Part shown: positions 14,287-64,000 of the stretch, one piece after another
Layout: each line of letters begins with the position of its first letter
Numbering within the stretch: the first letter of the stretch is position 1
Assembly (NCBI RefSeq): GCF_056712565.1
Contig: NZ_CM160072.1
Strand: one strand, 5' to 3'
Length of the DNA stretch: 64,000 bases
Program-made: the position numbers and the translations under genes
Notes under the pieces: generated by a model
The model's database searches: none
Seen by the model: the letters and a program-made list of their open reading frames with translations, nothing else
What the model was told of the DNA's origin: nothing

Positions 14287-14297
14287 GCGAGGGTAAA

Positions 14298-14797: not shown

Positions 14798-15094
14798 ATG
14801 GAAGGTAAAAACAAGTTCAATACTTATGTTGTTTCTTTTGATTATCCATCATCTTATTCCTCAGTGTTCTTAAGGTTAAGATCATTGATGTATGATATGA
14901 ATTTCTCCTCTATCGTGGCTGATGAATATGGGATACCACGACAATTGAATGAAAACTCCTTCGCAATAACGACATCGTTAGCCGCAAGTGAAATCGAAGA
15001 TTTAATCAGGCTCAAATGCTTAGACTTACCGGATATTGATTTTGACCTCAGCATTATGACAGTTGATGACTATTTCCGTCAGTTTTACAAGTAG
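14798..15094 (+). CDS. ghoS: Type V antitoxin GhoS (endoribonuclease cleaving ghoT mRNA)
   Basis: 98-aa ORF MEGKNKFNTYVVSFDYPSSYSSVF...; immediately upstream of ghoT. Confidence 0.85.
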   Translation: MEGKNKFNTYVVSFDYPSSYSSVFLRLRSLMYDMNFSSIVADEYGIPRQLNENSFAITTSLAASEIEDLIRLKCLDLPDIDFDLSIMTVDDYFRQFYK

Positions 15095-15121
15095 CCAGGA
15101 AGGATAAGAAGAACATAAAAA

Positions 15122-15295
15122 ATGGCACTATTCTCTAAAATATTAATTTTTTATGTGATTGGTGTGAACATATCCTTTGTCATTATCTGGTTTATCTCAC
15201 ATGAGAAAACACATATTCGTTTACTTAGTGCATTTCTGGTCGGAATAACCTGGCCAATGAGTCTTCCTGTGGCATTACTTTTTTCTCTCTTTTAG
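15122..15295 (+). CDS. ghoT: Type V toxin GhoT, small membrane-lytic peptide (57 aa); absent from the ORF track because it is under 60 aa
   Basis: Manual translation ATG 15122 to TAG 15293-15295: MALFSKILIFYVIGVNISFVIIWFISHEKTHIRLLSAFLVGITWPMSLPVALLFSLF. Confidence 0.8.
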   Translation: MALFSKILIFYVIGVNISFVIIWFISHEKTHIRLLSAFLVGITWPMSLPVALLFSLF

Positions 15296-15370
15296 GAGCT
15301 GTAGTTGAGTGGACCCGCTGGTTATCTTGAAACGAAGCGTCTCTCCTCAAAACTGGATTTGCGGAATGAC

Positions 15371-41979: not shown

Positions 41980-42107
41980 AGCGAGCCCACTTGTTTGGGA
42001 AGTTTATTCCTATCTTAGGATAGGAACCTGACAAGTGGGCGTAAACTATCTTGCGGGCGTGTTGGACTATTTTGCTTTCATTATCGGGCCAATGCAAAAT
42101 CACGCCA

Positions 42108-43163
42108 TCACCGTGTAATTCCCGGGGACACGACTTTTCGATAATCAGAGGGGGTCATGCCAGTATCTTTTTTGAAGATGCGGCAAAAATAGTTTGAATC
42201 CTGGTATGCCAGTTCCAGCGCAATGGTATTTACTTGTAAGTCACTGAACCGCAATAACGATTTGGCGATAGTAATTTTACGCGTGGCAATATAGTTCGAA
42301 AACCCGAACCCGGTAATTTTCTTAAAGGTACGGCTCAAATAGCAGGCACTGACAAACGATTTTGCTGCCACGTCATCGAGCGTCAAGTTTCTGAGAATAT
42401 TTTTCTCAATATGGAATTTCGCTCGTTCGATAAAATCGATATTGCCTGTATAGCCTTTTAATGCGTAATCAAACAGCTCTTCGCTAATGGTCAGCAGGCT
42501 GATCATGATGCGGAAATAGCGGCTTTCCATCATGCCATACTGGTTGATGTCTTTGATCAGCGCGGCGACTTTACGGTTAGTCGGCATTAACTTTTCCCCT
42601 TTGGCGGTCATATACTGGCTAACTATTTCCAGAAAATCGATCACGTCTTTGCGCTTATCCTCTTCTATCATATCCACCGGACAGGCACCGTTGAGCGTGT
42701 CAAAAATAAAGTTGTGCCACTGGGTGTAATCGCAATCGTCTATCATGGCGAACACTTTCTGTTTTAGGGCGCGGGATTTTTCATTTTCTCCTTCGTCGAA
42801 TGCTAGGGTTTTTTTGATGGTGTCGGTCAAGATACATTTTTTCACTGGTTTGAGCAGATAATCATCCACTTTAAGGTTGTACATGCTGCGTACTATATCA
42901 AAGTCATCATTGGCCGTGATTACGATGATTTTAGTATCGCTGTTTTTTTTCTTCAGATATTCAATCACCTGTTTACCGTTCGGCAACGGAATATTAATGT
43001 CCACTAAGATCATATCGATTTGACTCAGTTGGTCAATTAAGTGAATCGCTTTTTTACCGGTTGAGGCTTCATGGATCGCAGCGTTTTCCACACACTGGGA
43101 GATAATCTGCCGCAGGGATTCTAATTCGATGGGCTCATCTTCAACGATAACAATGGTAAACAT
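42108..43163 (-). CDS. Response regulator with CheY-like receiver and C-terminal AraC-type HTH (YesN-like)
   Basis: 351-aa ORF MFTIVIVEDEPIELESL...DMILVDINIPLPNGKQV... and C-terminal AraC HTH. Confidence 0.85.
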   Translation of the reverse strand: MFTIVIVEDEPIELESLRQIISQCVENAAIHEASTGKKAIHLIDQLSQIDMILVDINIPLPNGKQVIEYLKKKNSDTKIIVITANDDFDIVRSMYNLKVDDYLLKPVKKCILTDTIKKTLAFDEGENEKSRALKQKVFAMIDDCDYTQWHNFIFDTLNGACPVDMIEEDKRKDVIDFLEIVSQYMTAKGEKLMPTNRKVAALIKDINQYGMMESRYFRIMISLLTISEELFDYALKGYTGNIDFIERAKFHIEKNILRNLTLDDVAAKSFVSACYLSRTFKKITGFGFSNYIATRKITIAKSLLRFSDLQVNTIALELAYQDSNYFCRIFKKDTGMTPSDYRKVVSPGITR

Positions 43164-43179
43164 ATGTCCTTTTCCTGTA

Positions 43180-48633: not shown

Positions 48634-51186
48634 TTACGACAGTTGTTGCTCAGTACGGCTGATTATGTCGTCCTGAACTTCTTTCGCTAAAACTACCCAC
48701 TGGGCGCTATAGCCCGCAACGCGTACCACCAGATCCTGATGTTGCTCAGGATTTTTCTGGGCTTCGATCAAAGTGTTGCGGTCGATAACGTTAAATTGAA
48801 CGTGCATCCCTTTCTTATCGAAGTAGTGACGTATCAGGCCGCTGAAGTTGCGCAGACCGTTCTCGCCAGCCAAAGAAGACGGCAGGAATTTCTGATTATA
48901 GAGCGTACCGTTGGAGGCGATAAAGTGATCCAGTTTGGCAACTGAGTTGGCTGCGGCGGTTGGGCCAAGGGTGTCTTTACCCTGACGTGGAGATACGCCA
49001 TCCGCCAACGGCTCTTTCGCCAGACGGCCATCCGGCAGTGCGGCAACGTCTTTACCAAACAGCACGTTCGCAGACACCGGATAGATACCAGCCTGGAACT
49101 GGCCACCGCGCGGGTTGGTATATTTCTCAACTTCCTGGCAGTAGATCAGCGCACATTTACGCGCTACTAAATCCACGTCATCGATGTCGTTACCGAAGCA
49201 CGGTGTGTTTTCCAGAATACGACGGATCTCCTCGTGACGGGACATAGTGCCGGATTGCACCGGTGCTGCACTGCCGGAAGTCAGCTGGCGATAAACTTCG
49301 TTTTTAATCGCTGCCGGATCCAGCGCGCCATGCTGTTCAATGATGCGTTTCACCACATCGTAGATATCCTGCTCGTTGAGCGAGGATTTCGCCGCTGGAG
49401 TGTGCGGGTTCGCACCCACCGGATAACCGAAGTTGGCGTCCAGTGCGCTTTTCAGTTCGCTCAAAGACAGTTTACGATCTTCGAATACCTGTTTCTGGAT
49501 GGCATAGACGGAGTCGCCGGTATCGGCTACGCCGAATGCTTGCGGCCCAGTAAAGTTGTAAATCGCCCCGCCTTCCTGGAGAGATTTACCACGGCCGATA
49601 CAGTCGTCGACCAGTGCTGATAGGAACGGCAGCGGGCAGCGTTCGCCGTGGGCAATATCCACGCTGTTACAGGCTTCAACCAGTTGATGAACGAAGTGCG
49701 CCATCTGTTTCTGGAACGCGGTGTAGAAGTCCTCCATGCTGGTGAACTGAGTCAGTTCGCCAGTCACTGGGCCTAGCTGTTTATTGCCAACGCGACCGTT
49801 GTTCAGGGTGATTTCCAGCACTTTTGCAACGTTAAAGAACGCGGCGTCATGCCAGCCCTCGGTGCGATGCGGTGCCTGCGGCTCTACGCAGCCGATGATA
49901 CAGTAATCACGCGCATCACGCAGCGAAATGCCACGGTTCTGCAGCGCCGGGATGATTACTTCATCGTTGTACATTGCCGGAACGCCCAGGCCCATACGCA
50001 CCAGCTCGCAAGCGCGATACAGAAACTCATCCGGAGTACCCTGCCATACGCGGATTGAGAAGGATGGCTGCGGCAGACGCACATGGGCAGTCGCTTCCAT
50101 ACACATGTAGCTCAGATCGTTAGTTGCGTCGCGACCGTCTTCTGTCTGGCCGCCACAGCACAGGTTCTGGAACACTGCGTAACCGGCAAACGCCTGGGCA
50201 GAGACTTCGTCACGCGTTTTGTTAATGTCGTTAAGCTTGATCCAGCAGCAATCCACCAGTTCCTGCGCGAATTCACGCGAGATAGATTTGTCCGACTCCA
50301 GATACGGGTACATATACTGGTCGAAACGCCCCGGGGAGATAGAATGACCGCTGGATTCAATCTGTAACATGCTCTGAATAAACCAGAATGTCTGGCATGC
50401 TTCCCAGAATGTGGTAGCACCGTATTCCGGCACGCGAGTACAGTTTTGAGCAATCTGCTCCAGTTCGCGTTTACGGGTCGGATTGCTCTCCTGCTGCGCC
50501 AGACGGGATGCTTCTTCAGCGTAACGATGGGCGAAACGGATCGCTGCGTTATAACTGATCAGCACCGCATTATAGAACTGTTCTTTCTTTATATATCCTG
50601 GTTCAGTGCGATCTAATGATTCCAAGGCACGGCTAACTTCATTAATGATACCACGGAAACCAATTTTCAGCACTTTACCGTAGTCAACACTGACATGACC
50701 GACGCCCCCGAAGAAGTAGTTACCAACAGTGAATACACCGCTCGCCATACTCTCTTTAGTGCCTTCTGACATGTAAGATGCCGCCAGAGCACTGGTAGTT
50801 TTACCCGGCCAGTATTTAAATGCTTCATGAAGCTCCTGAGCAGTCTTTTTCGGGATAACAAACGGGTCGGCAATACGGTGTTCCATAGTCTCAAACTCTT
50901 TTTCCACCCAGTCGTAGGAGAACTCAGGGCAGATTTCAGTTGAGCGAGGATTAATAGTTACCGCTCCAACGATTAATTCGTCTGGGCGAATTGTTACCGG
51001 TAATTGGTTAAAGATTTTTTCCACCACTTTAGCACGACGCATAATCGCGGGCAGTTGTTCTGTTTCTTTATATGCTTCGGTTGCTAACACCGCGCGTTCT
51101 GATTCCACATACGGCTTCGCCGTCAGGATCATATTTCTCAGTCTTACAACACGGTCTGTCGGATTAGAAAAGCCTTTCTCTAACAT
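48634..51186 (-). CDS. Glycyl radical enzyme of the dehydratase/eliminase clade (probably B12-independent 1,2-propanediol dehydratase; choline TMA-lyase or another diol/amino-alcohol lyase not excluded)
   Basis: 850-aa ORF with catalytic GCVEP motif (DYCIIGCVEPQ) and C-terminal glycyl radical motif VVRVAGYSAQW; substrate assignment is inference from locus context. Confidence 0.85.
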   Translation of the reverse strand: MLEKGFSNPTDRVVRLRNMILTAKPYVESERAVLATEAYKETEQLPAIMRRAKVVEKIFNQLPVTIRPDELIVGAVTINPRSTEICPEFSYDWVEKEFETMEHRIADPFVIPKKTAQELHEAFKYWPGKTTSALAASYMSEGTKESMASGVFTVGNYFFGGVGHVSVDYGKVLKIGFRGIINEVSRALESLDRTEPGYIKKEQFYNAVLISYNAAIRFAHRYAEEASRLAQQESNPTRKRELEQIAQNCTRVPEYGATTFWEACQTFWFIQSMLQIESSGHSISPGRFDQYMYPYLESDKSISREFAQELVDCCWIKLNDINKTRDEVSAQAFAGYAVFQNLCCGGQTEDGRDATNDLSYMCMEATAHVRLPQPSFSIRVWQGTPDEFLYRACELVRMGLGVPAMYNDEVIIPALQNRGISLRDARDYCIIGCVEPQAPHRTEGWHDAAFFNVAKVLEITLNNGRVGNKQLGPVTGELTQFTSMEDFYTAFQKQMAHFVHQLVEACNSVDIAHGERCPLPFLSALVDDCIGRGKSLQEGGAIYNFTGPQAFGVADTGDSVYAIQKQVFEDRKLSLSELKSALDANFGYPVGANPHTPAAKSSLNEQDIYDVVKRIIEQHGALDPAAIKNEVYRQLTSGSAAPVQSGTMSRHEEIRRILENTPCFGNDIDDVDLVARKCALIYCQEVEKYTNPRGGQFQAGIYPVSANVLFGKDVAALPDGRLAKEPLADGVSPRQGKDTLGPTAAANSVAKLDHFIASNGTLYNQKFLPSSLAGENGLRNFSGLIRHYFDKKGMHVQFNVIDRNTLIEAQKNPEQHQDLVVRVAGYSAQWVVLAKEVQDDIISRTEQQLS

Positions 51187-51234
51187 ATAAAACTCCCGAA
51201 TATATTTTGTTAACCTTGCGGAGATGCCAGGGTA

Positions 51235-51810
51235 TTAATGAATAATGCTAGTGCCCATTTGAGTAATAAAGTGACGTAATATTGCTGGATGCCCCATCCA
51301 GGTAGTCGCGGTTATTAAATTACCATCCACAATGGCTTCATCATCTGCGGCAGTGACCCACTGGCCACCCGCCATTTCCACTTCCGGTTTTACCGTAAAA
51401 TATCCCGTCAGTTTCCGGCCTTTTAATACCCCAGCAGCGGCCAGAATTTGTGGGCCATGACAAATTGCAGCAACAGGTAATGTTAAATTCATCGCGTAAT
51501 GCACGATATCCAATACTGACTTATTTAATCGCAAGTATTCCGATGAACGCCCACCAGAAATATAAACACCACTATATTCCTGTAACCTTATGTCATCAAA
51601 TGATGCAGTTAATCTAAAAAGATGTCCGGGTTTTTCGGTGTAGGTCTGATCACCTTCAAAATCATGAATCGCGGTTTTAATAAACTCGCCGGTACGTTTT
51701 CCCGGACACACTACATCCACTCTGAAACCTAACATGTTTAATGCCTGCCATGGCACCATGACTTCATAGTCTTCAGAGAAATCGCCTGTGATAAGTAATA
51801 TCTTCTTCAT
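51235..51810 (-). CDS. DJ-1/PfpI-family protein (class I glutamine amidotransferase-like)
   Basis: Start at internal MKKILLITGDFSEDYEV (191 aa); nucleophile-elbow motif VAAICHGPQILAAAGVL. Confidence 0.75.
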   Translation of the reverse strand: MKKILLITGDFSEDYEVMVPWQALNMLGFRVDVVCPGKRTGEFIKTAIHDFEGDQTYTEKPGHLFRLTASFDDIRLQEYSGVYISGGRSSEYLRLNKSVLDIVHYAMNLTLPVAAICHGPQILAAAGVLKGRKLTGYFTVKPEVEMAGGQWVTAADDEAIVDGNLITATTWMGHPAILRHFITQMGTSIIH

Positions 51811-51820
51811 AAGCGGACTC

Positions 51821-52120
51821 TCAAAACTGGTTATCGTCTTCCTCAATGATTCGCATGGCTTCATGCACCGCCGCGACTTCGCCAAAAATGGCCAATGTGG
51901 TGATATGCTGAGGGCAACTGCCAAAGATTTCTGATACCACCACATTGGCGCTTTTACTGGCTACGTCGGCATAAAAATAGAGATCCGGAACCGGCAGTAT
52001 TAACAAACCAATGGCGTCGATGCGAATCAAATCCAAACGCGAACGAAACTCCCCGGGCATACGCCGTTTCAACATAGCCAAAATATCCGGGGTCGGTGCG
52101 TTTATGATTCGTTTTTTCAT
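51821..52120 (-). CDS. BMC shell protein, EutS/PduU-type (circularly permuted BMC domain)
   Basis: 99-aa ORF ...IGLLILPVPDLYFYADVASKSANVVVSEIFG...TLAIFGEVAAVHEAM... resembling EutS/PduU. Confidence 0.65.
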   Translation of the reverse strand: MKKRIINAPTPDILAMLKRRMPGEFRSRLDLIRIDAIGLLILPVPDLYFYADVASKSANVVVSEIFGSCPQHITTLAIFGEVAAVHEAMRIIEEDDNQF

Positions 52121-52143
52121 CTTTAAGTCACCCTTCGCGATAG

Positions 52144-53661
52144 TTAGCGAATATTCAGCGCTTCAACCATTACACAGCGACGACGGCGTGCAAACGAACG
52201 CGCTGACGTAAGTCCCTCGCCGGTCGGTCCGGCAATCGTAAAGGTGGCATGCCCTTCACCGCCCACCCCCAGCCCTGCATAAGAGGGACCATTTTTAACA
52301 AAGATGGTGGTCTGGATCAGGCGCGCCATTTTGGTCAGCTTTTCGACGTTGGTGGAGTGCATAACCGCGGTATGACGATTGCCGTGCTCCACTTTCACCG
52401 CCAGCTCAATGGCTTCATCAACATTGTCTACGCGCACCACCGGCAGGACCGGCATCATCAGCTCATGCACCACAAACGGATGTGTTTTCTCAGCCTCAAT
52501 TAAGATGACTTTGATATCGTCGCCAACCTGGATTCCCAGTTGTTGCAGGATATAGCGCGCATCTTTGCCGACAAAGGCGGTATTCGGCCCAGTGCCTTTT
52601 TCATTAAGCACCAACGATTGCAGTTGTTGACTTAACTTCTTATCGCACAACAGATAGGCACCGCTTTTCTTCATGCAGTGAATCAGATAGTCCGCTACCT
52701 GGTTCACAACAATCACCTCTTTTTCCGCCACGCACGGCAGGTTGTTGTCGAAGCTACAGCCCTTAATGATGTCGCGGGCTGCTTTTTCGATATCCGCCGT
52801 TTCATCTACCACAGCTGGCGGGTTACCTGCGCCTGCACCAATCGCTTTTTTACCTGATGACATCACGGTTTTCACGATGGCTGGACCGCCAGTCGCTACC
52901 AGCATGTTGATACGTGGGTCGTTGATCAGGACGTTGGTATTGTCGATGGACGGTTTGGTCACCGTTACCACCATGTTCGCCGGTGCGCCCAACTGGGCAA
53001 GCTTGTTGTTGATCAGCTCAACCGCGTACAGCGACACTTTGCGCGAGCGCGGATGTGGACTGAACACCACAGTGTTGCCTGCCGCCAGCATGCCTATGCT
53101 GTTGTTGATAATGGTTTCGGTCGGGTTAGTCGTTGGTGTAATCGAACCAATCACTCCGAACGCAGAGTATTCGATCAACGTTAAACCCCCGTCTCCGGAA
53201 ACCGCGCTGGTGGTCAGATCTTCGATACCTGGCGTTTTCAGCGCTGCGACGCGGTTTTTGATCAGTTTGTCCTCGTAATTCCCCATGCCGGTCTCTTCCA
53301 CCGCCATACGGGAAAGGGCACACAGCACATCTTCCTGCAGGAAGACATCGCGAATGCCATTGATAAACGAGGCGCGGTCTTGCATAGAACAGTGGCGATA
53401 CTGTACCTGTGCCAAGACGGCGGCGGAAATCGCCTCATCCATGGTATCGAATGCTCCAGTGCTAGCATTCGCTACCTTCGCTACCTGAGAGATCGCACTG
53501 GCGTCGCGCACGGAAGAGTGCTGCGCCAACGCCTTAGCGACAATTTCATCCAACCCGTCGACCCGCGCTGCTTCTGACGTGGCGGGAGCTTCATCCGGTG
53601 TTGCTTTGGTGAATTTGCTCAGGATGGTCGAGACAGCCTGAGCGATTTCAATATCATTCAT
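52144..53661 (-). CDS. CoA-acylating aldehyde dehydrogenase (PduP/EutE family)
   Basis: 505-aa ORF with aldehyde dehydrogenase core including catalytic Cys region NNLPCVAEKE. Confidence 0.9.
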   Translation of the reverse strand: MNDIEIAQAVSTILSKFTKATPDEAPATSEAARVDGLDEIVAKALAQHSSVRDASAISQVAKVANASTGAFDTMDEAISAAVLAQVQYRHCSMQDRASFINGIRDVFLQEDVLCALSRMAVEETGMGNYEDKLIKNRVAALKTPGIEDLTTSAVSGDGGLTLIEYSAFGVIGSITPTTNPTETIINNSIGMLAAGNTVVFSPHPRSRKVSLYAVELINNKLAQLGAPANMVVTVTKPSIDNTNVLINDPRINMLVATGGPAIVKTVMSSGKKAIGAGAGNPPAVVDETADIEKAARDIIKGCSFDNNLPCVAEKEVIVVNQVADYLIHCMKKSGAYLLCDKKLSQQLQSLVLNEKGTGPNTAFVGKDARYILQQLGIQVGDDIKVILIEAEKTHPFVVHELMMPVLPVVRVDNVDEAIELAVKVEHGNRHTAVMHSTNVEKLTKMARLIQTTIFVKNGPSYAGLGVGGEGHATFTIAGPTGEGLTSARSFARRRRCVMVEALNIR

Positions 53662-53721
53662 CTTTAAATTCCTTACTACTCTTCATCTACCGACCGCGCC
53701 GCGTGCATCGTCATCAGATGC

Positions 53722-54507
53722 TTAGATATATGGCGTCGTGGTGGATTTAATTTCCACCGGATCTAACGTGGAGAGCAGTTGTAGACCGACTTCACGCGCG
53801 GCAATCACCGCCTGACGTACTGCACCGGAATCACCGGAGAAGGTGAAGATCACTTCGTTACTAAAGCTGGTGCCTTGCGACGGGCTGGCATAACCCACCG
53901 GGTCAATCACGGCGGATTTCGCCGCAGCGTCGGCAATCACTAGGCCAATCGCCGCAGGCGAGGCACAGGTCATCCCGAAGGATTTACCAATCGGCGCACC
54001 CAGCGCTTTATTCAGCGCGTAGCTGGCACGAGCGGTGTACTGGAATTCAAGATGTCCGGCTGACGAGCCATAAACGTCACCCATGGTGCGTTCAATTTCA
54101 GACAGCGCCACTTCAACCGCACGCCTGACGTCGGAAACATCAGACGCACCAAAAATAATTAAGCAACCGTGTCCGCCACCTCCTTCGGTATCGCGGGCCA
54201 GCTCAATAGAAATAATTTCGCTGTTGGTTGCTTTAATCGCTTCGTCAGCCGCAAAAATTTGCGGGCCTGCGCCAGTACGTGCGCCAAGAATACCGATAGA
54301 GCGATATTTCTTGTCGATATTCATGACTTCATGCAATTGATTATCAACATTGGCAATCACTAGGCCGATAGTGTGGCCCAACGCAGTGCCGACAAATTCC
54401 GTAATACCGCAACCAGCGAAATTTGCTGCTGTTTTAGCTTCCGGTGAGATATCGGTTTGTTTATTCATTACGTCAGATATAATCTGCTCAACAAGATTAT
54501 CTCTCAT
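53722..54507 (-). CDS. BMC-T shell protein (tandem BMC domains, PduB-like)
   Basis: 261-aa ORF with two BMC-like repeats. Confidence 0.75.
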   Translation of the reverse strand: MRDNLVEQIISDVMNKQTDISPEAKTAANFAGCGITEFVGTALGHTIGLVIANVDNQLHEVMNIDKKYRSIGILGARTGAGPQIFAADEAIKATNSEIISIELARDTEGGGGHGCLIIFGASDVSDVRRAVEVALSEIERTMGDVYGSSAGHLEFQYTARASYALNKALGAPIGKSFGMTCASPAAIGLVIADAAAKSAVIDPVGYASPSQGTSFSNEVIFTFSGDSGAVRQAVIAAREVGLQLLSTLDPVEIKSTTTPYI

Positions 54508-54528
54508 GATCAGTATCCTTTATTGTTA

Positions 54529-54810
54529 TTAACCGATAGCCTTCGGTAGAATTTTTTCCACCTCAATGTGTGGGCGTGGAATAACATGTACGGAGACCAG
54601 TTCTCCCACTTTACTCGCAGCAGCGGAGCCCGCATCTGTCGCGGCTTTCACTGCGCCAACGTCGCCGCGAACCATCACAGTCACCAAGCCGGAGCCGATT
54701 TTTTCATAACCCACTAGGGTCACGTTGGCAGATTTCACCATGGTATCTGCAGCTTCAATTGCAGAAACCAGACCTTTCGTTTCAACCATTCCTAATGCTT
54801 CTTGTTGCAT
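54529..54810 (-). CDS. BMC-H shell protein (PduA/EutM-like)
   Basis: Start at internal [57 protein letters not shown] (93 aa). Confidence 0.85.
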
Positions 54811-55094
54811 AACGACCTCAATATTTCCGATAGAAAGAAAACGTGCACAGAGGAATAGCAATCTACGGATTCACCCATGTGCATTAATTATTTAATTATC
54901 ATAATGCTAAGGTTATTCAGACAAAATGTTTTGCGCGTCAGTGGGACTATCTTGCTTTTGCATTCCCGCAATTGACAATAAAATCCACCCGAGGTTTGTA
55001 ATAAAAGATCTGCGTTTAAATTTCCTTGCAAAATAGCCCCGCTCTGAATAGCAATCATAATTACTGTTAAAACTGTCGTATTTTTGCCAATTAG

Positions 55095-56291
55095 TTATGC
55101 CGTGCGGGCAATCTCCGCTGCATCTATAGCAATCATTTTTTCTTCATTGGTTGGGATGACCGCAATCTTCGTGGTGTCGGTTTTAGAAATCAGTCCGCTA
55201 CGTCCGCCGAACAGCTGCTGGTTACGTTCTTTATCCAGTTCCAATCCCAGCGCCTGAAGGCGTTGCACGGTAAGTTCTCGAATTAACGCCGAGTTTTCGC
55301 CAATTCCACCGGTGAAAATCAGCGCATCGAAGCGTTTAAGCGAGGTCACGTGGCCGCCGATATGTCGTGCGAGACGATGTACTAACACGTCGATGGCTAA
55401 CGCTGCCCGTTCGTGGCCCTCATCACGCGCCTGCTGAAGGGTGCGGCAATCGCTGGATAAGCCGGAAATCCCCATTAGGCCGGACTGGTTATTGAGCATT
55501 TTGTACAGCGTGTCGAACGTTTGACCTGTGCGTTTCGCCAGATATGCGACGACACCAAAATCAAGATCCCCGCAGCGCGTGCCCATTACCAGCCCTTCCA
55601 GCGGGGTCATACCCATTGAGGTGTCAATGCTCGTGCCGTTTTGCACCGCACATAGCGATGAACCGTTGCCCAAGTGGGCAATCACGATGCCATGATCCGC
55701 CGGGTCGAGATCTAGTGATGCAAGCGCCTCGGCGGCAATATAGCGGTGAGATGTTCCGTGAAAGCCGTAACGTCGCACCATATAATCTTGCTGGAACTCC
55801 AGCGGGATCGCATAGGTGTAAGCAGCCGGAGACAAGGTCTGGTGGAACGCAGTATCGAACACCGCAATATGCGGCAACGCGGGCAACAGAGCCCGAGCCG
55901 CTTCAATACCAATCAGGTTGGCAGGGTTATGCAAAGGGGCCAGCACCGACAGCGCGCGGACTTTTTCGATCACATCATCGGTAACCAGTACTGATCTTTT
56001 GAAGTCGCTGCCGCCATGAGCCACGCGGTGCCCAACGGCGTTGATGGCTTCCAACAGTTGCTGTTCGTCGAGCTTCGCGAAGAGCACTTTGAGCGCATGC
56101 TGATGGCTGGCGTCATCCAGCGCGACAGTGGATTTATGGCCGTCTCGGTCTTTAAACGTTATGACAGCATGATCAATACCCAGTCGTTCCGCTAGGCCCG
56201 ACAGCAACGGCTGATCTGCATCCTGAGGAATGACGGAGAATTTCATTGATGAGGAACCACAATTAATCACTAATACACAAGCTAAAGACAT
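55095..56291 (-). CDS. Acetate/propionate kinase (AckA/PduW/TdcD family)
   Basis: Start at internal MSLACVLVINCGSSSMKF (398 aa); ASKHA motifs FHGTSHRY and FTGGIGENS. Confidence 0.85.
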   Translation of the reverse strand: MSLACVLVINCGSSSMKFSVIPQDADQPLLSGLAERLGIDHAVITFKDRDGHKSTVALDDASHQHALKVLFAKLDEQQLLEAINAVGHRVAHGGSDFKRSVLVTDDVIEKVRALSVLAPLHNPANLIGIEAARALLPALPHIAVFDTAFHQTLSPAAYTYAIPLEFQQDYMVRRYGFHGTSHRYIAAEALASLDLDPADHGIVIAHLGNGSSLCAVQNGTSIDTSMGMTPLEGLVMGTRCGDLDFGVVAYLAKRTGQTFDTLYKMLNNQSGLMGISGLSSDCRTLQQARDEGHERAALAIDVLVHRLARHIGGHVTSLKRFDALIFTGGIGENSALIRELTVQRLQALGLELDKERNQQLFGGRSGLISKTDTTKIAVIPTNEEKMIAIDAAEIARTA

Positions 56292-56319
56292 GATGCCCCC
56301 TGAAATGGACTGCAAAAAA

Positions 56320-56817
56320 TTAACGGGTTGTTGTGAGGGGATAACGCAGAACGCTAAACTGCGCCATCGCCTGGCGGGCGATGAGCATATCTTCCTCAAC
56401 ACTGCCGCCGCTGATGCCGATGCCGCCTAGTAAGCGCCTGCCCGACCAGCAGGGAAAACCACCGCCGAAGCAGCAGATATCTTTTTCTTTCTCAAGGCCG
56501 TACAAATCACCACCCGGCTGTACCAGCGTTGCCAGTTCGTGAGTTGGCATTTTGAGAGCTACCGCGGTCCAGGCCTTTTGTGGTGCCAAGGTATGGCTGA
56601 CCAGCAGGGCGTTATCCATGCTGAAGAAAAAACGCTGCTGACCGCAGGCATCCACTAGGCTAAAAACGATCGATACATTGCTGGACTGTGCTATTTCCCG
56701 GACCAACTTTGCCAGCAGTTCACTGTCCTCCAGGCTCAGCGACATCCGGAGTTCCGGTAACTGCGTGGCAATAGCCTCGTTAATCCAGTTGTCGAGTGAA
56801 GCCTCATTCGCAGACAT
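56320..56817 (-). CDS. GlcG/PduO-C-terminal-like (DUF336, heme-binding-type) protein
   Basis: 165-aa ORF with C-terminal GGIGISGGSVEEDMLIARQAM motif. Confidence 0.65.
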   Translation of the reverse strand: MSANEASLDNWINEAIATQLPELRMSLSLEDSELLAKLVREIAQSSNVSIVFSLVDACGQQRFFFSMDNALLVSHTLAPQKAWTAVALKMPTHELATLVQPGGDLYGLEKEKDICCFGGGFPCWSGRRLLGGIGISGGSVEEDMLIARQAMAQFSVLRYPLTTTR

Positions 56818-56844
56818 AAGTATTCCTCAGCGTACGCGCCGCTA

Positions 56845-57114
56845 TTAACCGTTAAGTTCGAGCGAGTCGACGATACCCACCACGGCAGCGTCAATCACCG
56901 AGTGATCTTTGTTGTTGCTCATACGCGCCGAACTGCCGGTGGTGATGATCACAATCTCTCCATTGCCCGCGCCGACAGTATCAACTGCCACCTGGGCATG
57001 AACAGTCGGCTGATAGTTTTCATCGAGCCGCGCCACTATCAGCAGTTTTGAGCCATTCAGCGAGGCGTGTTTGGTGGTGGAAACCAATGCGCCAGTAACT
57101 TTAGCGAGGTACAT
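56845..57114 (-). CDS. BMC-P vertex (pentamer) protein, EutN/PduN/CcmL family
   Basis: 89-aa ORF MYLAKVTGALVSTTKHASLNGSKLLIV...GAGNGEIVII... Confidence 0.85.
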   Translation of the reverse strand: MYLAKVTGALVSTTKHASLNGSKLLIVARLDENYQPTVHAQVAVDTVGAGNGEIVIITTGSSARMSNNKDHSVIDAAVVGIVDSLELNG

Positions 57115-57125
57115 ATTTCCTCCGG

Positions 57126-57830
57126 TTAACCATGGATAACAGTGAGATTACGCCGCTGGATTTCATCTCTGGCAGCAGGGGTAATCAGCGTGTCGCTCTC
57201 AATGCGCAGCACTGTGCCAATGGTCAGTAGGCGGATATCGCTCTGGGTGATTAAACGTTTTTTACCGGCTACTGTCAGGGTGGATTGGCTTCCTTGCACC
57301 GACTTGACATGGGCTGCACGTTTACCGAAAAGCGTAATGCCATAGCTCTCTAGGACCTGAGCGTAACCTTCCAGACAAGACAGCAGTGGCATCGGTAATT
57401 CGCTATCGACGCATTGTTGATGCAGCGTGGCGATAATCTGTTTACGGTGCTGTAACGTCTGAAATACAGTTTCACAGGCCAGATTATCGCGAATGCCCAG
57501 CGCAATTTTGCTCATGCTGTTGACAGAGAGCGCAGGCAGATAGAGCACCTCATAGTGAGGCGGCGATCTGTCAAATCCAGCACGAGAACCACGCTGAATT
57601 AGCGCATCCATGCAGACAGATTTCAGCGCCGACTGGCTGGCGCTGTGAGAAAAATTTACCCACAACTGATAACCCGCCAGCTCAAGCGCCTCAAGGCAGT
57701 TCAGCGTTTCCGGCAGCGAGGAGATATCCTCACCAGTCACCACTACGCAGACATTTTTCTGCGCGACGGATTGTGCCAACACTTCAGCGATGACCCGGTC
57801 CAGCAGTTGCGATAAGGTTTGATTGTCCAT
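57126..57830 (-). CDS. Hypothetical protein of the microcompartment operon (possible flavoprotein-like fold; unassigned)
   Basis: ORF track 241 aa; start at internal MDNQTLSQLL preferred (follows the EutJ-like stop); VCVVVTGEDISSL motif; family uncertain. Confidence 0.45.
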   Translation of the reverse strand: MDNQTLSQLLDRVIAEVLAQSVAQKNVCVVVTGEDISSLPETLNCLEALELAGYQLWVNFSHSASQSALKSVCMDALIQRGSRAGFDRSPPHYEVLYLPALSVNSMSKIALGIRDNLACETVFQTLQHRKQIIATLHQQCVDSELPMPLLSCLEGYAQVLESYGITLFGKRAAHVKSVQGSQSTLTVAGKKRLITQSDIRLLTIGTVLRIESDTLITPAARDEIQRRNLTVIHG

Positions 57831-57834
57831 TGAT

Positions 57835-58593
57835 TTACCCCTGGTCCGCATTCATGGCGATGCCTAATGGTGTGACCAATAGTGGCTCTGCCGAAGGAAT
57901 CACATTTTTACCGGTTTGTTTACTGAACACGTTGGCAAACTGGCTGAAGCTGCTCGCGCCACCTACCAAATAAATATTTTTTACCTGCTGGGTAGCGAAC
58001 CATCCCGACACCAAGCTGGCCATTTTCTGGGCCACCGGTAGCACCAGGGTAAAGACCTGCGCTTCCTGCCCGTTTTTTTTCATTTCTTCCGCCTCGGCAT
58101 AAGGCAAGCCCAGCGCGCCAGCGATCACCAACTTCATATGGCTTCCACCGGTGGGCTCATCGGCACTGAACGTCACTTTACCGCTTTTCAAAATGCTCAT
58201 GCCGGTGGTGCCTCCTCCGACATCCACCACCGCCCCGTTTTTAATATTCAGCGCGCTGGCAGCGGCTACCGGTTCATCTAGTACTTGGGTCACGATAAAA
58301 CCCGCCAACTCCACTACGTTGACGATCACTTTTGTGTTGCCTTCAGAGATCCCCGGTGGGACTGCGATCGCCGCGCGCTCCAGCGTGCAGCCCTGTTTCT
58401 GTTCAAGAATTTGTTTGAGACGTGCTACTACCCGGCTGGCGGTCAGGTAATCCACCACCACGCCGTCTTTCACCACATTGGAGGGATACATTACCCCTGC
58501 CACCGGCTGGTTATCTTCATCCAGCACCACGATTGCGATATTGGCGGTACCGAGATCCCCCCCACCTTCAACGCGCCGGAGTAGGGCCGACAT
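57835..58593 (-). CDS. EutJ-like actin/Hsp70-fold chaperone; N-terminus apparently displaced by a -1 frameshift in a C7/G7 homopolymer
   Basis: 252-aa ORF with DLGTANIAIVV and VDVGGGTTG motifs; an upstream ATG at 58653-58655 reads MANSPENCRFHELAALIDSGECRPYSGALKVG in another frame and would join in-frame if the run at 58557-58563 were 8 nt. Confidence 0.7.
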   Translation of the reverse strand: MSALLRRVEGGGDLGTANIAIVVLDEDNQPVAGVMYPSNVVKDGVVVDYLTASRVVARLKQILEQKQGCTLERAAIAVPPGISEGNTKVIVNVVELAGFIVTQVLDEPVAAASALNIKNGAVVDVGGGTTGMSILKSGKVTFSADEPTGGSHMKLVIAGALGLPYAEAEEMKKNGQEAQVFTLVLPVAQKMASLVSGWFATQQVKNIYLVGGASSFSQFANVFSKQTGKNVIPSAEPLLVTPLGIAMNADQG

Positions 58594-58647
58594 TCGCCGC
58601 TGTCAATCAGCGCGGCCAATTCGTGAAATCGGCAGTTTTCGGGGCTG

Positions 58648-59334
58648 TTAGCCATGGCGCGCAGCCTGTTTTATGCCGCGAACGGTATCGCCATTACGCA
58701 GACCGACGCCGTTAGCTTCTTCCATATCAATATGCAGTTCCAGCACTGCATCCGCCGTGACGCGTACCACTACATGGCTGAGCACACCACCGCGCGGACC
58801 GTTTGTTTGCACATCGATTTCCATTCCGTCATGCAGGCCGTGCAGTTCGGCTTCTTCGGGCGAGATATGGATATGGCGCCAGGCGACAATCATGCCGTTG
58901 TGTTTCACCACCCGCCCTTTCGGACCGATGATTTCAATGCCCGGCGAATCCAGCAGATCCCCCGACATGCGCACCGGAGCTTTAGTGCCCAGCGCAAAGC
59001 CGTCGGCCACAGAGATTTCCACCTGCGTGGCATTACGCAGTGGCCCTAACACGCGCACTTTGTTGAGCTCGCCTTTTGGCCCGCGCAGCGTCACCATCTC
59101 TTCGGCGGCATACTGACCGGGCTGTTTCAACGCTTTAGAACGGGTTAGCGTAGAGCCGTAGCCAAACAGAATGTCCATATCTTCACGGCACAGATGAACA
59201 TGGCGGTTGGACACGCCCACCGGAATATTCAGCGCGACAGGCGCGGCAGCAGGCGCTGCCGTTTTTTTACTGGTGGCAAGTTCCTGCAAAATTTGTTGGG
59301 TAATCCACTCGGCTTGTTGTTCGGTGTAATTCAT
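58648..59334 (-). CDS. PduL-type phosphotransacylase (phosphate acyl-transferase)
   Basis: 228-aa ORF with PduL signatures NRHVHL and WRHIHISPEEA. Confidence 0.85.
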   Translation of the reverse strand: MNYTEQQAEWITQQILQELATSKKTAAPAAAPVALNIPVGVSNRHVHLCREDMDILFGYGSTLTRSKALKQPGQYAAEEMVTLRGPKGELNKVRVLGPLRNATQVEISVADGFALGTKAPVRMSGDLLDSPGIEIIGPKGRVVKHNGMIVAWRHIHISPEEAELHGLHDGMEIDVQTNGPRGGVLSHVVVRVTADAVLELHIDMEEANGVGLRNGDTVRGIKQAARHG

Positions 59335-59473
59335 AATGGGTACGACCTGATTATTGGGTTATCTTATGGGTAATGGGCGTCTAACGATCAGGATAGGGAG
59401 TAACGACGCCCGGTTTTTGTTTATCAGCAGGACTTTTTTGACTGCTTCACGGAGGCTGAACAAAGTTATCCAG

Positions 59474-60592
59474 CTAGCCGGTAATCAGGTCGATCAACCC
59501 TTCGACATCATGCGTCGTCACCTGCCGCGGGTTCGACGCGGTACAACCGTCGGCCAGCGTCGAATTCACCAGTGCGCTGCGCAACTCGATGATTTTTGCA
59601 CGGTCGATGCCCAGTTCGCTGAGAGTGACGGGGATGCAGAAATGGCGATTGATCTGGCGGATCTCCTGAGTCATCAGCGCGATGGCCTGCTCCGGTACCG
59701 CATGGTCAATGCCTATGATTTGCGCGCAACGGTGATAGCGATCGCGGGTTTCAGTGCTGGCCCGTTTGCTGTTGAAGTCGATGACAATCGGCAGCAGCAT
59801 GGCGTTAATTTTGCCATGAGGAATATGCAGCATCCCGCCGATGGCGTGTGCCATGCCGTGTACCAACCCCAGCCCGGCGGAGTTAAATGCCATGCCTGCC
59901 ATACAGGAGGCATTGTGCATGTGGGTGCGCGCCGCAATGTCTTTTTCGTCGTTAAACACCTGCGGCAGATAGCGCCAGGTCAACGCGATGGCTTTTTCCG
60001 CCAGCGCATCGCTAAAGTCATTTGAGCCAGTAGAGACAAAGGCTTCAATGGCATGGGTCAGCACGTCCATGCCGGTATCTACCGCGACATGACGCGGCGC
60101 GGTTAACACTAGGTTAGGATCGAGAATGGCGATTTCCGGCACCAGTTGCCCGGAGATCAACGGATATTTGCGGCCATTTTGCGGATCAGAGATGATCGCG
60201 TAGGACGTCACTTCAGAGCCGGATCCGCTGGTTGTGGGAATAGCAATGAGATCGATTTGATGATCTCCAAAATACTCTTCCAATGTGACTTTAATTCCTT
60301 TCGCAGCGTCCAGCGACGAGCCGCCGCCGAGGGCGATAATAACGTCGGGCTTAAAGGCTTTAAAACGCGCCGCGCCGGAAGTCAGAATATCAATATCTGG
60401 ATCCGGAGTAACCTCACCGAAAATGCATACCGATGCCTCAGGCATATGGCTTATTAAATAACGAGTTTTACCTGATGACATCATAAAATCATCGGTGACA
60501 ATACCGACTCGTTTATTATTAAATTGGCATAGAGAGGTTATTGCCTCTTCACCAAAATAAATTTTGGGGCACGAAAAATAATAGCGGGCCAT
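59474..60592 (-). CDS. Iron-containing alcohol dehydrogenase (PduQ/EutG-like); first gene of the operon
   Basis: 372-aa ORF with Fe-ADH motifs GGGSSLDAAK and His-rich metal site; 5' intergenic region upstream. Confidence 0.9.
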   Translation of the reverse strand: MARYYFSCPKIYFGEEAITSLCQFNNKRVGIVTDDFMMSSGKTRYLISHMPEASVCIFGEVTPDPDIDILTSGAARFKAFKPDVIIALGGGSSLDAAKGIKVTLEEYFGDHQIDLIAIPTTSGSGSEVTSYAIISDPQNGRKYPLISGQLVPEIAILDPNLVLTAPRHVAVDTGMDVLTHAIEAFVSTGSNDFSDALAEKAIALTWRYLPQVFNDEKDIAARTHMHNASCMAGMAFNSAGLGLVHGMAHAIGGMLHIPHGKINAMLLPIVIDFNSKRASTETRDRYHRCAQIIGIDHAVPEQAIALMTQEIRQINRHFCIPVTLSELGIDRAKIIELRSALVNSTLADGCTASNPRQVTTHDVEGLIDLITG

Positions 60593-60810: not shown

Positions 60811-61442
60811 TTGCCACTGCACTGCTTCAGGAATGTATTCACCCCTCATAAAGGCTTCAATGACTCTCCGCCATGGCAAACATGCCATAGGGGGAGATTT
60901 TCAGATAATGATAATAATGTTCGCCCACATCCGATTGTAAATGGATCAGAAAAATGGCCGCGTATTGCCCTGCTGAATGTGGATTACGTCACCTGTTTTG
61001 AATTGCCTTTCTGCTTACCCGGACACCACAACTGATTGCTGTGCTGCGTGAAGAATGGGACATCAGCCAGAAAAATGTGGTGTTCAACGATAAACGCTTT
61101 GGCTGCGTGTACAGCCTGAAGGCCAGTCTTTCCAGTGTGCCGGATACATACCGGTATCATCTGTCTCACCGTATTCGTCGCGTGGTTGGGAATGAAAACA
61201 CATCATTGCCATATCAGCAGGTTGCCCGGGAAGTGAAAGCGCCCCGTGAACGGCTGAAGTATGCGCTGGAGGCGGGGTTACTGGTGACCGCACTGGACGG
61301 CCTGTTCTGGTCTGGCAGTCAGCGTATTGCGGCTGATGTCCTGAGACTAAGACAGAGCGGAATGCCGGTGGTGACAACGACCGTGGAGGTGCACGATAAC
61401 CTGACGGGAACAACCCGCAAAATACCGGCATACCATCTCTGA
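60811..61442 (+). pseudogene. Gene fragments of unknown function (two adjacent ORFs in different frames, no convincing start)
   Basis: ORFs 60811-61035 and 61041-61442 (GTG-initiated in ORF track) look like pieces of one disrupted gene; family not recognised. Confidence 0.25.
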
Positions 61443-61462
61443 TACAACCATCAGGGGGAATA

Positions 61463-61771
61463 TTGCTCTGGCAGCAGCAGTACGACATTCTTTATACTTT
61501 ATCCCCGTGCCTGAAAACATGTGCTAAGGAAACGGGAATGGCAAGGTCCGATTACGATATTATCAATCTGTCTCTGGAACATGAACTGAATGAGTGGCTG
61601 GCAGAGAGAGGTTATGCCGGACTGGCGTATAACCGGAACCGGGTGGTAGAGGTGGTTACCCGCAAATTGCAGGACAGCTTTTATATCAACGTTTCCTGGG
61701 ATGCGCTGAACACGGCATACAATGAACACCCGGAGTGGTTTTCAGGGTTTGTCTCCGGGGATGAGAATTAA
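61463..61771 (+). CDS. Hypothetical small protein
   Basis: 102-aa ORF, plausible shorter start at MARSDYDIINL; family not recognised. Confidence 0.3.
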   Translation: MLWQQQYDILYTLSPCLKTCAKETGMARSDYDIINLSLEHELNEWLAERGYAGLAYNRNRVVEVVTRKLQDSFYINVSWDALNTAYNEHPEWFSGFVSGDEN

Positions 61772-61823
61772 TAAGTGGATTATGCTGCCATCAGGCAGTG
61801 TGATTGCCGGCAGGGATTTCGTT

Positions 61824-62015
61824 TTATTCTGTTTCTTCCCGGGGGTCGGGTTTGAATTTTCCCAGAAAGTTGTACATCGGTCGCATACAGGGATGCGGAT
61901 AACCCTCCCGCATAAAAACCACTCGGGTTTCTTCGACGCTGGTTACGGTGGCCAGTGCTCCATGATCGTCTTTGTATCGCTGATTGACTTTCGGTAATGG
62001 AACATCTTCTGACAT
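61824..62015 (-). CDS. Hypothetical small protein
   Basis: 63-aa ORF MSEDVPLPKVNQRYKDDHGALATVTSVEETRVVF...; family not recognised. Confidence 0.3.
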   Translation of the reverse strand: MSEDVPLPKVNQRYKDDHGALATVTSVEETRVVFMREGYPHPCMRPMYNFLGKFKPDPREETE

Positions 62016-62607
62016 AAATTTTAGTACGGTAACAGTTAACTAAATTTTCATGTGGTAGCACTGAATCAGGAGACTGCGTTTCCTGATGTGCGCTGTTAAT
62101 TTTCTGTTTTTACGAAACATTTTCCCCTTCTTCCTGTGTATTTTATTGCGCTCCTCTTTTCATGTCCTTCCCATATCCTGAAACTCACTTAAATGCTGTT
62201 GAATCGTCACGCATTGCAATTTTCAATGACTGAAATCAAAAATTGCTATTTTTTAAGCTAACCAACTGTATTAAAAGCATTCAGTGGAATAATTTTCTGC
62301 ACTTTTCCATTAATTATGGTTATAAATTTTGTAATGTGCTGTTTTTGCGATATTAGTCAGAATAAAGAACTGTTCATTTGTATTATATTGATCGATAAAT
62401 CTGCCATATTGCTGTAGTTCAGATCATTATTCTATAATGATCAAAATTAAGTCAGCTAAAAATTGGCAGATTTATTACTCAGCATTCTGGTACCGGTTGA
62501 TGTGGGTAAATACCGGAAAGGCGGTAGCGTGCCATTGCAAAAAATGGTGGGAGGTATCGTCAGGAGGCTGGTAATTGTTGGTATGGCATGAATAAAAGGT
62601 TTTTCGT

Positions 62608-63045
62608 TTGACTGGAAAATTATGTTGCAGGAACGTGAGGGCTGAGGAACAAAGCGTATTCCGGCGCTGTCCGTCCTTGCTGTCACTGACACTGATGTCT
62701 GCTTTATTATCGCCTTTATCTCTTCAGGCAGCGGATGTCCGGCGTAGCGGAGATGAAGCATTTATCATTCAGCAGCAGCGTCAGGAAGCCCTTGAGCAAC
62801 AACTGATGCCTTCAGCCCCTGATGTTCGCCTTTCTGCACCTGGCTCTTTTGCACGTAAGATTAATTTTCCTGTTGAAACGCCCTGTTTTCAGATTAAACA
62901 GACGGAACTGGAGGGGGCTGATGCGTTACCACACTGGCTGCCTTTACAAAAAATCGCCAACGGGGCGGTCGGGCACTGTCTGGGGGCGAAAGGAATTAAT
63001 CTGCTGATGAGTACATTGCAGAACCGTCTGGTCGATCATGGTTAA
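62608..63045 (+). pseudogene. TpsB-family (ShlB/FhaC/CdiB-like) outer-membrane transporter, N-terminal fragment only
   Basis: Signal peptide plus POTRA-like N-terminus ending ...[20 protein letters not shown] then stop; full TpsB proteins are ~550-590 aa. Confidence 0.55.
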
Positions 63046-63116
63046 CCCTTTCCGGTCAGCAGATAACGCGACTGACAGAATTACCCCCGGCATATAACCT
63101 GCAGCGCAGTGCGCAG

Positions 63117-63515
63117 TTGCTGCAGCAACTGATGGTACTTTTCCCCGACAATCCCCATGTTCAGGAAATGGTGGATAACTGGCAGAAGAGCGTAAGGAGT
63201 CGTGCGCTCCCGGAAGAGGCGATGACGGGCTGGAATGAAGGCATGACCCGCTTACAGCAGCTGGCTGAACGCCTGAACCGTCTGGATGAACAGCGGGGAA
63301 AATACATGACGGTCAGTGAACTGAGAACGGAGGTGTTTGGCATCATGCAGGCCTTTAACCGGCATATCCCGGCGGAAGAGCAGTTACGTCGCTATGATGA
63401 AGCCCGTAACCAGAATGGCAGTGAACAGCAGCAAAAACAGGCTGAAATGGCACTGAATCAGCTGATTAATCGTTATCAGGTGGAACACGCTGGCAAACCG
63501 GAGAGGCAGCCATGA
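63117..63515 (+). CDS. Hypothetical protein or gene fragment
   Basis: 132-aa ORF; reading frame extends upstream without a start; family not recognised. Confidence 0.25.
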   Translation: MLQQLMVLFPDNPHVQEMVDNWQKSVRSRALPEEAMTGWNEGMTRLQQLAERLNRLDEQRGKYMTVSELRTEVFGIMQAFNRHIPAEEQLRRYDEARNQNGSEQQQKQAEMALNQLINRYQVEHAGKPERQP

Positions 63516-63753
63516 TGGCTGATAAAACATGGTAATGGAAAATAAACCCAAAAGAATGCGCACACCATGGGCAATCGAAGATATTCGCTACCTTGAAACG
63601 CATTATGGCGTGAAAAAAAACGCGAAATAGCGGCATATTGCCATGGGAGGGGATATGTCTGTCAGGCTGACTTGTTTTTCTCTTAAATAGCCTTTATTTA
63701 AATTAGCCTTGGTATGAAATTAGAATCTATTAATTTTTATCAAAGGAGATTGT

Positions 63754-64000
63754 GTGACAATAGCAAGAGATTCTGTTAGTGGTGAAATTGTTCATGGTCA
63801 TGATCTTCGGGAAATGGATGATCTTTATATACGAACAACCACTTTTGAATGCCCGTATGACAAATGTAGGATACCCGCTACTCCATGTAGCTTCAAAGAA
63901 ATAAATTTAAATCAATCATACTTTCGATATAAAGAGACTCATAGGCCGGGATGTAATATTCATGATCCTAAGAGTAAAAATAAGTGTAACTCAAAGAATA
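63754..64000 (+). CDS. Cys-rich hypothetical protein, partial (runs off the window end)
   Basis: GTG at 63754 preceded by AAAGGAG at 63742-63748; 82 codons without stop; AT-rich. Confidence 0.35.
   Translation, partial: MTIARDSVSGEIVHGHDLREMDDLYIRTTTFECPYDKCRIPATPCSFKEINLNQSYFRYKETHRPGCNIHDPKSKNKCNSKN

Follow-up and report, generated by a model that had tools for sequence, protein, structure and literature searches.

Two described defense systems serve as points of reference for the gene analyzed here. Avs8B is encoded by the second gene of the Avs8 STAND-NTPase system and was reported to resemble no described protein (bioRxiv 10.1101/2025.07.02.662641); Avs8 is the same system as PD-Lambda-4, named after Vassallo 2022, and avs8B is an accessory gene of this anti-phage STAND nucleoside triphosphatase (NTPase). 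Qat is defined as four genes, of which QatBC alone defends against lambda-vir (PMC13279940). The subject of this study is an open reading frame (ORF) cut off by the end of a 64,000-nucleotide stretch of DNA from NCBI RefSeq assembly GCF_056712565.1, contig NZ_CM160072.1 (hereafter the window). It forms the 5' part of a functional gene encoding a long-form member of the PD-Lambda-4_B/Avs8B family, carried as cargo of mobile elements and defense islands. For its product we tentatively propose a membrane-tethered, nucleic-acid-binding protein with a slippage-prone spacer. The original prediction, made from the letters of the window alone, had described a GTG start behind a well-spaced AAAGGAG, 82 codons open to the window end, AT-rich surroundings, and a CxYDKC motif among other Cys/His pairs; it held that the fragment could not be classified and proposed extending the frame and running homology and domain searches.

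A conserved gene of the PD-Lambda-4_B/Avs8B family

The end of the window is 100% identical to Escherichia coli genomes of the phylogroup B2 type, such as S88, APEC O1, and ATCC 11775, in which the frame continues beyond the window. In S88 (NC_011742.1; locus L001, positions 13755-15353, where the window coordinate equals the L001 coordinate plus 49999) it reaches 532 codons and is annotated as WP_015953084.1, a "hypothetical protein." The length of the gene differs between strains, 532 codons being that of the S88 allele. What had been predicted of the start was borne out: the AAAGGAG is followed by attgt and then the GTG, and translation from 63754 to 63999 meets no stop codon. Because an in-frame TAG at 63721-63723 ends the frame upstream, this GTG is the first canonical start. 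Its position is kept in 11 orthologs, which begin M-T-I/V/L-A from GTG, ATG, or TTG; the ortholog in E. albertii has the AAAGGAG motif too, and the others have purine-rich motifs at an equal distance. A sigma-70-like promoter candidate (Table 1), the sole plus-strand site found by a consensus scan of L001 13400-15600, is weak evidence, since the total number of sites was not above that expected from shuffling.

Early stop codons and a lack of conservation, either of which would have spoken against a gene, were looked for in other genomes and not found. Orthologs are spread across Enterobacterales, in Klebsiella, Citrobacter, Serratia, Xenorhabdus, Providencia, Pectobacterium, Yersinia, Enterobacter, Pantoea, Erwinia, and E. 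albertii, and are present in Vibrio as well; a search for related loci with an alignment of close orthologs returned six. Among the orthologs, the ratio of nonsynonymous to synonymous substitution rates (dN/dS) over the first 300 codons is 0.08-0.16. The gene is conserved and under purifying selection, and a spurious ORF is ruled out by the conservation and the dN/dS. Of 5426 complete E. coli genomes, 254 have the gene, and no fewer than 231 of these carry at least 80% of the locus; a few of the sampled copies are interrupted by insertion sequence (IS) elements or truncated. The surroundings are AT-rich, as noted from the window (36.8% G+C at 63500-63999, versus 50-58% in the neighboring grp operon). 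In the N-terminal coding part, G+C stands at 31.8% overall and 23% at third codon positions, values that mark the gene as horizontally acquired.

The fragment did resist classification, in that it took a family profile to connect the protein with PD-Lambda-4_B/Avs8B. Pfam gave no match at E<=1 with either the full protein or its first 332 residues, and NCBIfam and PHROGs, searched with the first 332 residues only, gave nothing usable. PADLOC, searched with both, returned only PD-Lambda-4_B (PDLC03992; E=1.9e-6), a weak and partial direct match of 80 residues (amino acids 209-288, aligned with positions 222-296 of the 303-position profile). A profile of the close orthologs, compared with 1.84 billion cluster representatives, retrieved 252 relatives aligned over about positions 1-290, and 129 of the 138 relatives tested matched PD-Lambda-4_B, the best with E 4.7e-189. 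These profile matches show the S88 protein to be homologous, by sequence, to PD-Lambda-4_B over its whole N-terminal module of ~300 residues (a predicted zinc ribbon and OB-like barrel). On the same grounds it is a divergent member of a named but uncharacterized family. A tblastn search of 50,697 phage records gave no match.

A long architecture, with an extension of 60-200 residues, is found in 51 of the 138 family representatives; the S88 protein is longer than the short forms typified by Avs8B because of its repeat linker and amphipathic tail. The family name was already known, and we found no earlier description in the literature of the long, repeat-bearing and tail-carrying form, of the predicted fold, or of independence from Avs8A.

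Predicted module, variable repeat, and cationic tail

The product carries C33-P-Y-D-K-C38, C45, H63, C67, H70, and C78, so that the Cys/His pairs first noticed in the fragment are there, and they correspond to the conserved ligands of a predicted C2HC zinc ribbon. Across 138 family members, C33 and C67 do not vary, while C38 and H63 are each kept in at least 90%. An AlphaFold2 (AF2) model on the 138-sequence alignment had a predicted local distance difference test score (pLDDT) of 87.3 and a predicted template modeling score (pTM) of 0.82, with a pLDDT of 83-94 in the zinc-ribbon stretch. The ribbon is packed in the model on a barrel of five strands in which a helix separates strands 3 and 4, the arrangement of an oligonucleotide/oligosaccharide-binding (OB) fold. 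Comparison of the model with viral structures gave LEF-3, SSB, and other OB-like proteins as most of the best matches, all with weak scores, and a sequence-profile search of the PDB returned nothing at E<=1. The predicted module has no conserved catalytic motif. Its N-terminus is also devoid of a hydrophobic signal-like segment, which rules out a secreted or periplasmic TonB-like spacer protein.

Table 1. Features of the gene in the window and beyond its end
Feature	Position	Strand	Basis and remarks
Sigma-70-like promoter candidate, TTTAAA, 18-nt spacer, TAGAAT	63697-63726	+	Consensus scan, 9/12 positions; L001 13698-13727
Shine-Dalgarno sequence, AAAGGAG	63742-63748	+	Read directly; 5 nt before the start codon
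GTG start codon	63754-63756	+	Annotated start of WP_015953084.1
First 82 codons plus one base of the 532-codon gene (S88 length)	63754-64000	+	Extension in NC_011742.1
Predicted N-terminal C2HC zinc-ribbon module, codons 1-69	63754-63960	+	Conservation in 138 family members; AF2 model
Predicted zinc ligand codon, C33	63850-63852	+	
Predicted zinc ligand codon, C38	63865-63867	+	
Predicted zinc ligand codon, H63	63940-63942	+	
Predicted zinc ligand codon, C67	63952-63954	+	
Predicted loop	aa 70-130, beyond window		AF2 model
Predicted OB-like beta-barrel	aa ~160-305, beyond window		AF2 model
Predicted helix	aa 305-331, beyond window		AF2 model
Downstream defense island	L001 15485-22508 (would be window 65484-72507), beyond window		

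In S88 the module is followed by a tandem repeat (L001 14737-15265) of 58.8 copies of the 9-bp unit GCTGAGGTT, with 100% matches, encoding (AEV)58. Copy number ranges from 4 to 60, with 36 distinct alleles among 53 sampled E. coli genomes, and in 53 of 54 sampled complete genomes the difference in length from S88 is an exact multiple of 9 bp, which keeps the frame. Three strains in which the gene starts at the identical genome coordinate (352952) have 4, 5, and 27 copies. The only sampled allele with a length difference that is not a multiple of 9, that of E. coli MS 110-3 (NZ_CP146663.1), is annotated as two hypothetical proteins; either a real frameshift or an error of sequencing must lie behind it.

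Equivalent arrays occur in relatives. A paralog with 57% identity, present in 314 genomes (O157:H7, O55:H7, and O121), has at the equivalent position (PE)n encoded by GCCAGA in about 5-54 copies, and other genera have (PE)2-13. The homolog on pVA1-type Vibrio plasmids is 31% identical in the N-terminal module, yet it has (AEV)16 encoded by GCTGAAGTT, which matches the E. coli unit at 8 of 9 nucleotides, the one difference being synonymous; the array has about 3-29 copies among 37 plasmids. That AEV is kept in two divergent branches, with (PE)n in the intermediate ones, is the most surprising observation of this study.

One account of the repeat, to which we give close to an even chance, is that the protein is functional and the repeat a tolerated, slippage-prone linker whose copy number varies neutrally, with no role as ruler, decoy, or tuning element. 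This estimate stands apart from the three functional readings considered below and fits with any of them. The range of 4-60 copies is wide and has no preferred value, strains with identical upstream coordinates differ, relatives use (PE)n or nonrepetitive disordered linkers of 60-200 residues, and tandem-repeat loci of O157 mutate by slippage at 4e-5 to 2e-3 per generation (PMC3777172). Against neutrality, all units in the family are multiples of 3 nt, sampled intact alleles never fall below about 3-4 copies, and retention of the AEV unit at 8 of 9 nucleotides between proteins only 31% identical elsewhere is difficult to account for unless the unit is under constraint. A purely neutral linker is argued against by the sharing of AEV between divergent branches whose intermediates have (PE)n. 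The opposite account, in which the repeat is a selected element and the long forms are membrane-tethered DNA sensors or decoys whose acidic (AEV)n or (PE)n leash serves as an adjustable ruler or DNA mimic, is in our judgment a long shot; we keep it in view because the AEV unit persists in the E. coli and pVA1 homologs, at 31% identity elsewhere. If it were true, slippage would give a population diversity in reach or affinity, making this a length-tuning contingency locus in immunity or plasmid transfer, and any function of the repeat would amount to unusual in-frame length variation in a conflict-system gene.

Several side observations concern these arrays. Many ortholog clusters are labeled partial and end at about residue 330, among them the representatives of E. 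coli clusters of 907 and 1019 sequences. Short-read contigs end exactly at the repeat (entries P0001, P0002, P0003, P0006, P0008, and P0011; loci L003, L004, and L014); partial entries are many because short-read assemblies break there, and the tail and repeat are therefore largely invisible to annotation. Literature searches with the E. coli repeat as DNA and peptide and with the protein accession found no paper on the (AEV)n array of B2 E. coli, and a search with the (PE)n DNA found irrelevant papers only. Related arrays may already serve as typing markers. In O157:H7 MB41-1 (L013 7001-8227; 9473-9573), a VNTR-9-like array, TATTTC x16.8, lies 1.35 kb downstream of the (PE)n paralog, and its flanks match the primers of VNTR-9, a variable-number tandem-repeat locus. 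The (PE)n array may therefore be the adjacent, hypervariable O157 locus of multiple-locus variable-number tandem-repeat analysis (MLVA), Vhec1/TR2/O157-10. On the Vibrio parahaemolyticus plasmid pVPE61a (NZ_AP014860.1), the homolog with GCTGAAGTT x16 lies at 42044-43171 (L024 9001-10128), and a second 9-bp array, TTGTTTTTC x4, lies at 4240-4275. A variable 9-bp simple sequence repeat (SSR) has been reported in pVA1 (PMC10433878); either of the two 9-bp arrays of pVPE61a may be this published "9 bp SSR" marker.

After the repeat, the S88 protein has a tail of 30 amino acids whose final 16 residues, RKIWTGIRKLISFFKK, have a net charge of +6 and a helical hydrophobic moment of 0.79, a value that 0.25% of shuffled sequences attain. 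Most of the 51 long forms likewise have a low-complexity or disordered linker followed by a cationic, strongly amphipathic final 20 residues (for example SIFSKILNFFRK, LVRRLWRWLFKR, and VLKRFLDWLK), with charges mostly of +3 to +8 and moments of 0.5-0.96, compared with 0.2-0.3 in the linkers. One family member, P0113, lacks the cationic amphipathic tail and has near its C-terminus a hydrophobic segment resembling a transmembrane helix, LSGLLAILLVLFIAGLAINGVI; the presence of this segment supports a membrane-anchoring role for the C-terminus.

Genomic contexts and possible roles

In S88, RefSeq annotates a KAP family NTPase in the QatA position 131 nt downstream of the gene, followed by QatB, QatC, and QatD. 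Beyond QatD comes a convergent, CBASS-like pair, a SMODS/AGS-C nucleotidyltransferase and a two-transmembrane effector of the SLATT_6 type, with copies of IS3 and IS1 after it. The gene therefore occupies the edge of a defense island. The whole island block is found at a different chromosomal site in STEC799 and EC361; in other E. coli strains it adjoins the gentisate operon, and so it moves as a unit. A search of the island segment L001 10500-15600 against Rfam found nothing. Upstream, the window holds a complete grpA-grpM operon for a glycyl-radical propanediol utilization microcompartment (50000-60592, minus strand; annotated in S88). Between grpA and the gene lies gene debris (60943-63515) consisting of an ECs1377-family fragment with a frameshift, a hypothetical ORF of 77 aa, a minus-strand DUF4222 gene, and truncated pseudogenes for POTRA-domain and VasL-domain proteins; this stretch resembles the decayed margin of an earlier mobile element. 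The AT-rich 407-aa ORF to which the original prediction likened the region (32349-33572, plus strand) has no Pfam match at E<=0.01.

Outside this lineage the surroundings change. No qat genes were found near the orthologs in Xenorhabdus, Enterobacter, E. coli O157, Yersinia, or Vibrio. An element shared by O157:H7 and Enterobacter comprises two tyrosine recombinases, a 543-aa protein, small ORFs, the gene, a BamE-domain gene, and a MobA/VirD2-like relaxase; the Xenorhabdus ortholog has a BamE-like neighbor too. On Yersinia plasmids it is transcribed divergently from the gene for a MobQ or MobA relaxase, with traD and pilV downstream of it, and on pVA1 the homolog lies inside a Trb-type transfer region with a 32-nt overlap with the preceding ORF. 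In Providencia it adjoins a type I restriction-modification system, and in Enterobacter cloacae it sits in an integrase-rich island. Distant long forms follow a GASH/DO-GTPase/GAP1 system, follow a pair of AAA and S8-peptidase genes, or lie in the end of a P2-like prophage, and one short form stands at a prophage or tailocin end with no NTPase. The common denominator of these contexts is cargo of mobile elements and defense hotspots, with no fixed partner.

The reading we prefer, at somewhat less than an even chance, is that the gene encodes a membrane-tethered nucleic-acid-binding protein with a slippage-prone spacer, which is carried by mobile elements and acts alone, not as a Qat subunit. 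The N-terminal module would bind nucleic acid, probably single-stranded or entering DNA, and the C-terminal helix would hold the protein at the inner membrane, on its cytoplasmic side. The (AEV)n tract, which is acidic, would be a spacer measuring roughly 2-27 nm as a helix and up to about 55 nm in extended form, whose length replication slippage would reset with the frame intact. Most speculatively, the protein may act for its mobile element on DNA crossing the membrane, during phage injection or conjugation; such stand-alone action would be an exclusion or defense type of activity, separate from the neighboring Qat.

Several points weigh against this proposal. The gene and the Qat allele are nearly completely linked in E. 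coli (254 versus 260 genomes), and co-transcription with qatA is possible, since the 131-nt gap contains no predicted site resembling a terminator or promoter. Avs8B, the only tested relative, was dispensable for lambda defense and gave no defense alone (bioRxiv 10.1101/2025.07.02.662641). The amphipathic C-terminal helix, here taken for a membrane anchor, could instead be a peptide that docks onto a partner protein, and the variation in repeat length may be neutral. Finally, linker charge runs from -19 to +15 across the wider family, so that acidity is specific to the S88 subfamily and no general requirement.

Two other functional readings were considered, each of them an alternative to stand-alone action and to the other. 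The first, which we regard as unlikely, makes the protein an accessory or regulatory subunit of an adjacent P-loop NTPase (QatA, of the KAP family, as Avs8B is found with Avs8A) that may tune activation, localization, or phage range. The founding member of the family is indeed in an operon with Avs8A, the gene lies on the same strand as qatA across the short gap just described, QatA binds DNA and affects defensive range (PMC13279940), and other long forms follow the AAA ATPase and S8 peptidase pair or the GTPase-based system. The co-occurrence with Qat in E. coli would also fit, but it reflects one island lineage, at least 99% identical, moving as a block. Orthologs at 49-60% identity occur without Qat and without an adjacent NTPase, the short-form member at a prophage end has none either, Avs8B is dispensable for Avs8A function (bioRxiv 10.1101/2025.07.02.662641), and the published work on Qat has four genes only (PMC13279940). 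Its narrower form, a fifth Qat subunit, is rejected as the leading explanation on account of the orthologs without Qat.

Equally doubtful, in our view, is a conjugation or mobilization factor, tethered to the membrane and handling transferred single-stranded DNA (ssDNA) at the type IV secretion machinery of donor or recipient, in which case the island copy in B2 E. coli would be what is left of a mobilizable element. The pVA1-type homolog lies between traF and lytic transglycosylase genes and the coupling-protein gene (PMC9602635), the placement beside the relaxase, traD, and pilV on Yersinia plasmids fits, a MobA/VirD2-like relaxase is ~1.3 kb away in the Enterobacter/O157 element, and the predicted OB-like fold would suit ssDNA binding. 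However, the island at the window contains no relaxase or type IV secretion genes, the gene is absent from the 14 annotated type IV secretion components in the published analysis of the pVA1 transfer system (PMC9602635), the wider family is mostly in defense islands or prophage ends without transfer genes, and unrelated cargo also collects in transfer regions.

Whichever role applies, PD-Lambda-4_B/Avs8B comprises at least 252 sequence clusters in defense islands and mobile elements, and this locus offers a testable long-form architecture (a predicted zinc ribbon, OB-like barrel, spacer, and membrane-type helix) and shows that the tie to the Avs8A NTPase is not general in the family. Uropathogenic and avian-pathogenic E. 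coli carry the gene, among them CFT073, S88, and APEC O1, and sister versions are found in O157:H7 and on the shrimp-disease plasmid pVA1.

Comparison with described systems

Like Avs8B, the S88 protein is encoded in a defense island and belongs to no Pfam family. Avs8B is encoded in a two-gene operon with Avs8A (Mrr nuclease plus STAND NTPase), whereas the downstream neighbor of the S88 gene is QatA, a KAP-family NTPase, and no STAND NTPase was found within 12 kb on either side. The two proteins also differ in length: Avs8B has ~303 amino acids and no C-terminal extension, and the S88 protein has 532, including (AEV)58 and the tail. Nor does it resemble a component of QatABCD, since no homology to QatA-D was found (NCBIfam on 332 residues; PADLOC on the full protein).

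Its N-terminal ligand pattern, C33-x4-C38 ... Y56-F57-R58 ... H63-x3-C67, is like that of the CoiA-type zinc ribbon (CoiA_N, PF25164), and the family keeps each of these residues without exception or in at least 90% of its members. The CoiA_N Pfam model itself did not match the S88 protein and gave a weak, sub-threshold match to 1 of the 138 family members (E=0.0072). E. coli SSB, T4 gp32, T7 gp2.5, and RPA are OB-fold ssDNA-binding proteins with an acidic C-terminal region. The S88 protein differs from such proteins in having no sequence match to SSB families (Pfam, E<=1), in a terminal peptide that is cationic and amphipathic where theirs is acidic, and in a linker that is a perfect, hypervariable tandem repeat.

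MinD and FtsA have C-terminal amphipathic membrane-targeting helices. The terminal segment of the S88 protein resembles these in its positive charge and high moment, features kept in most of the 51 long forms; the FtsA sequence, scored identically, gave a moment of 0.57, so that the S88 tail is at least as high. Unlike MinD and FtsA, to neither of which it is homologous, the S88 protein is a predicted membrane binder only, and the proposed tether draws on the fit of the tail pattern to helices of this type.

At the DNA level, the locus resembles simple-sequence contingency loci in its perfect intragenic repeat, whose copy number differs between close strains, most likely by slippage. It departs from the phase-variable members of that class in that its units are of 9 or 6 bp: on/off phase variation is ruled out by repeat units that are multiples of three, and slippage here alters the length of the protein while leaving it switched neither on nor off.

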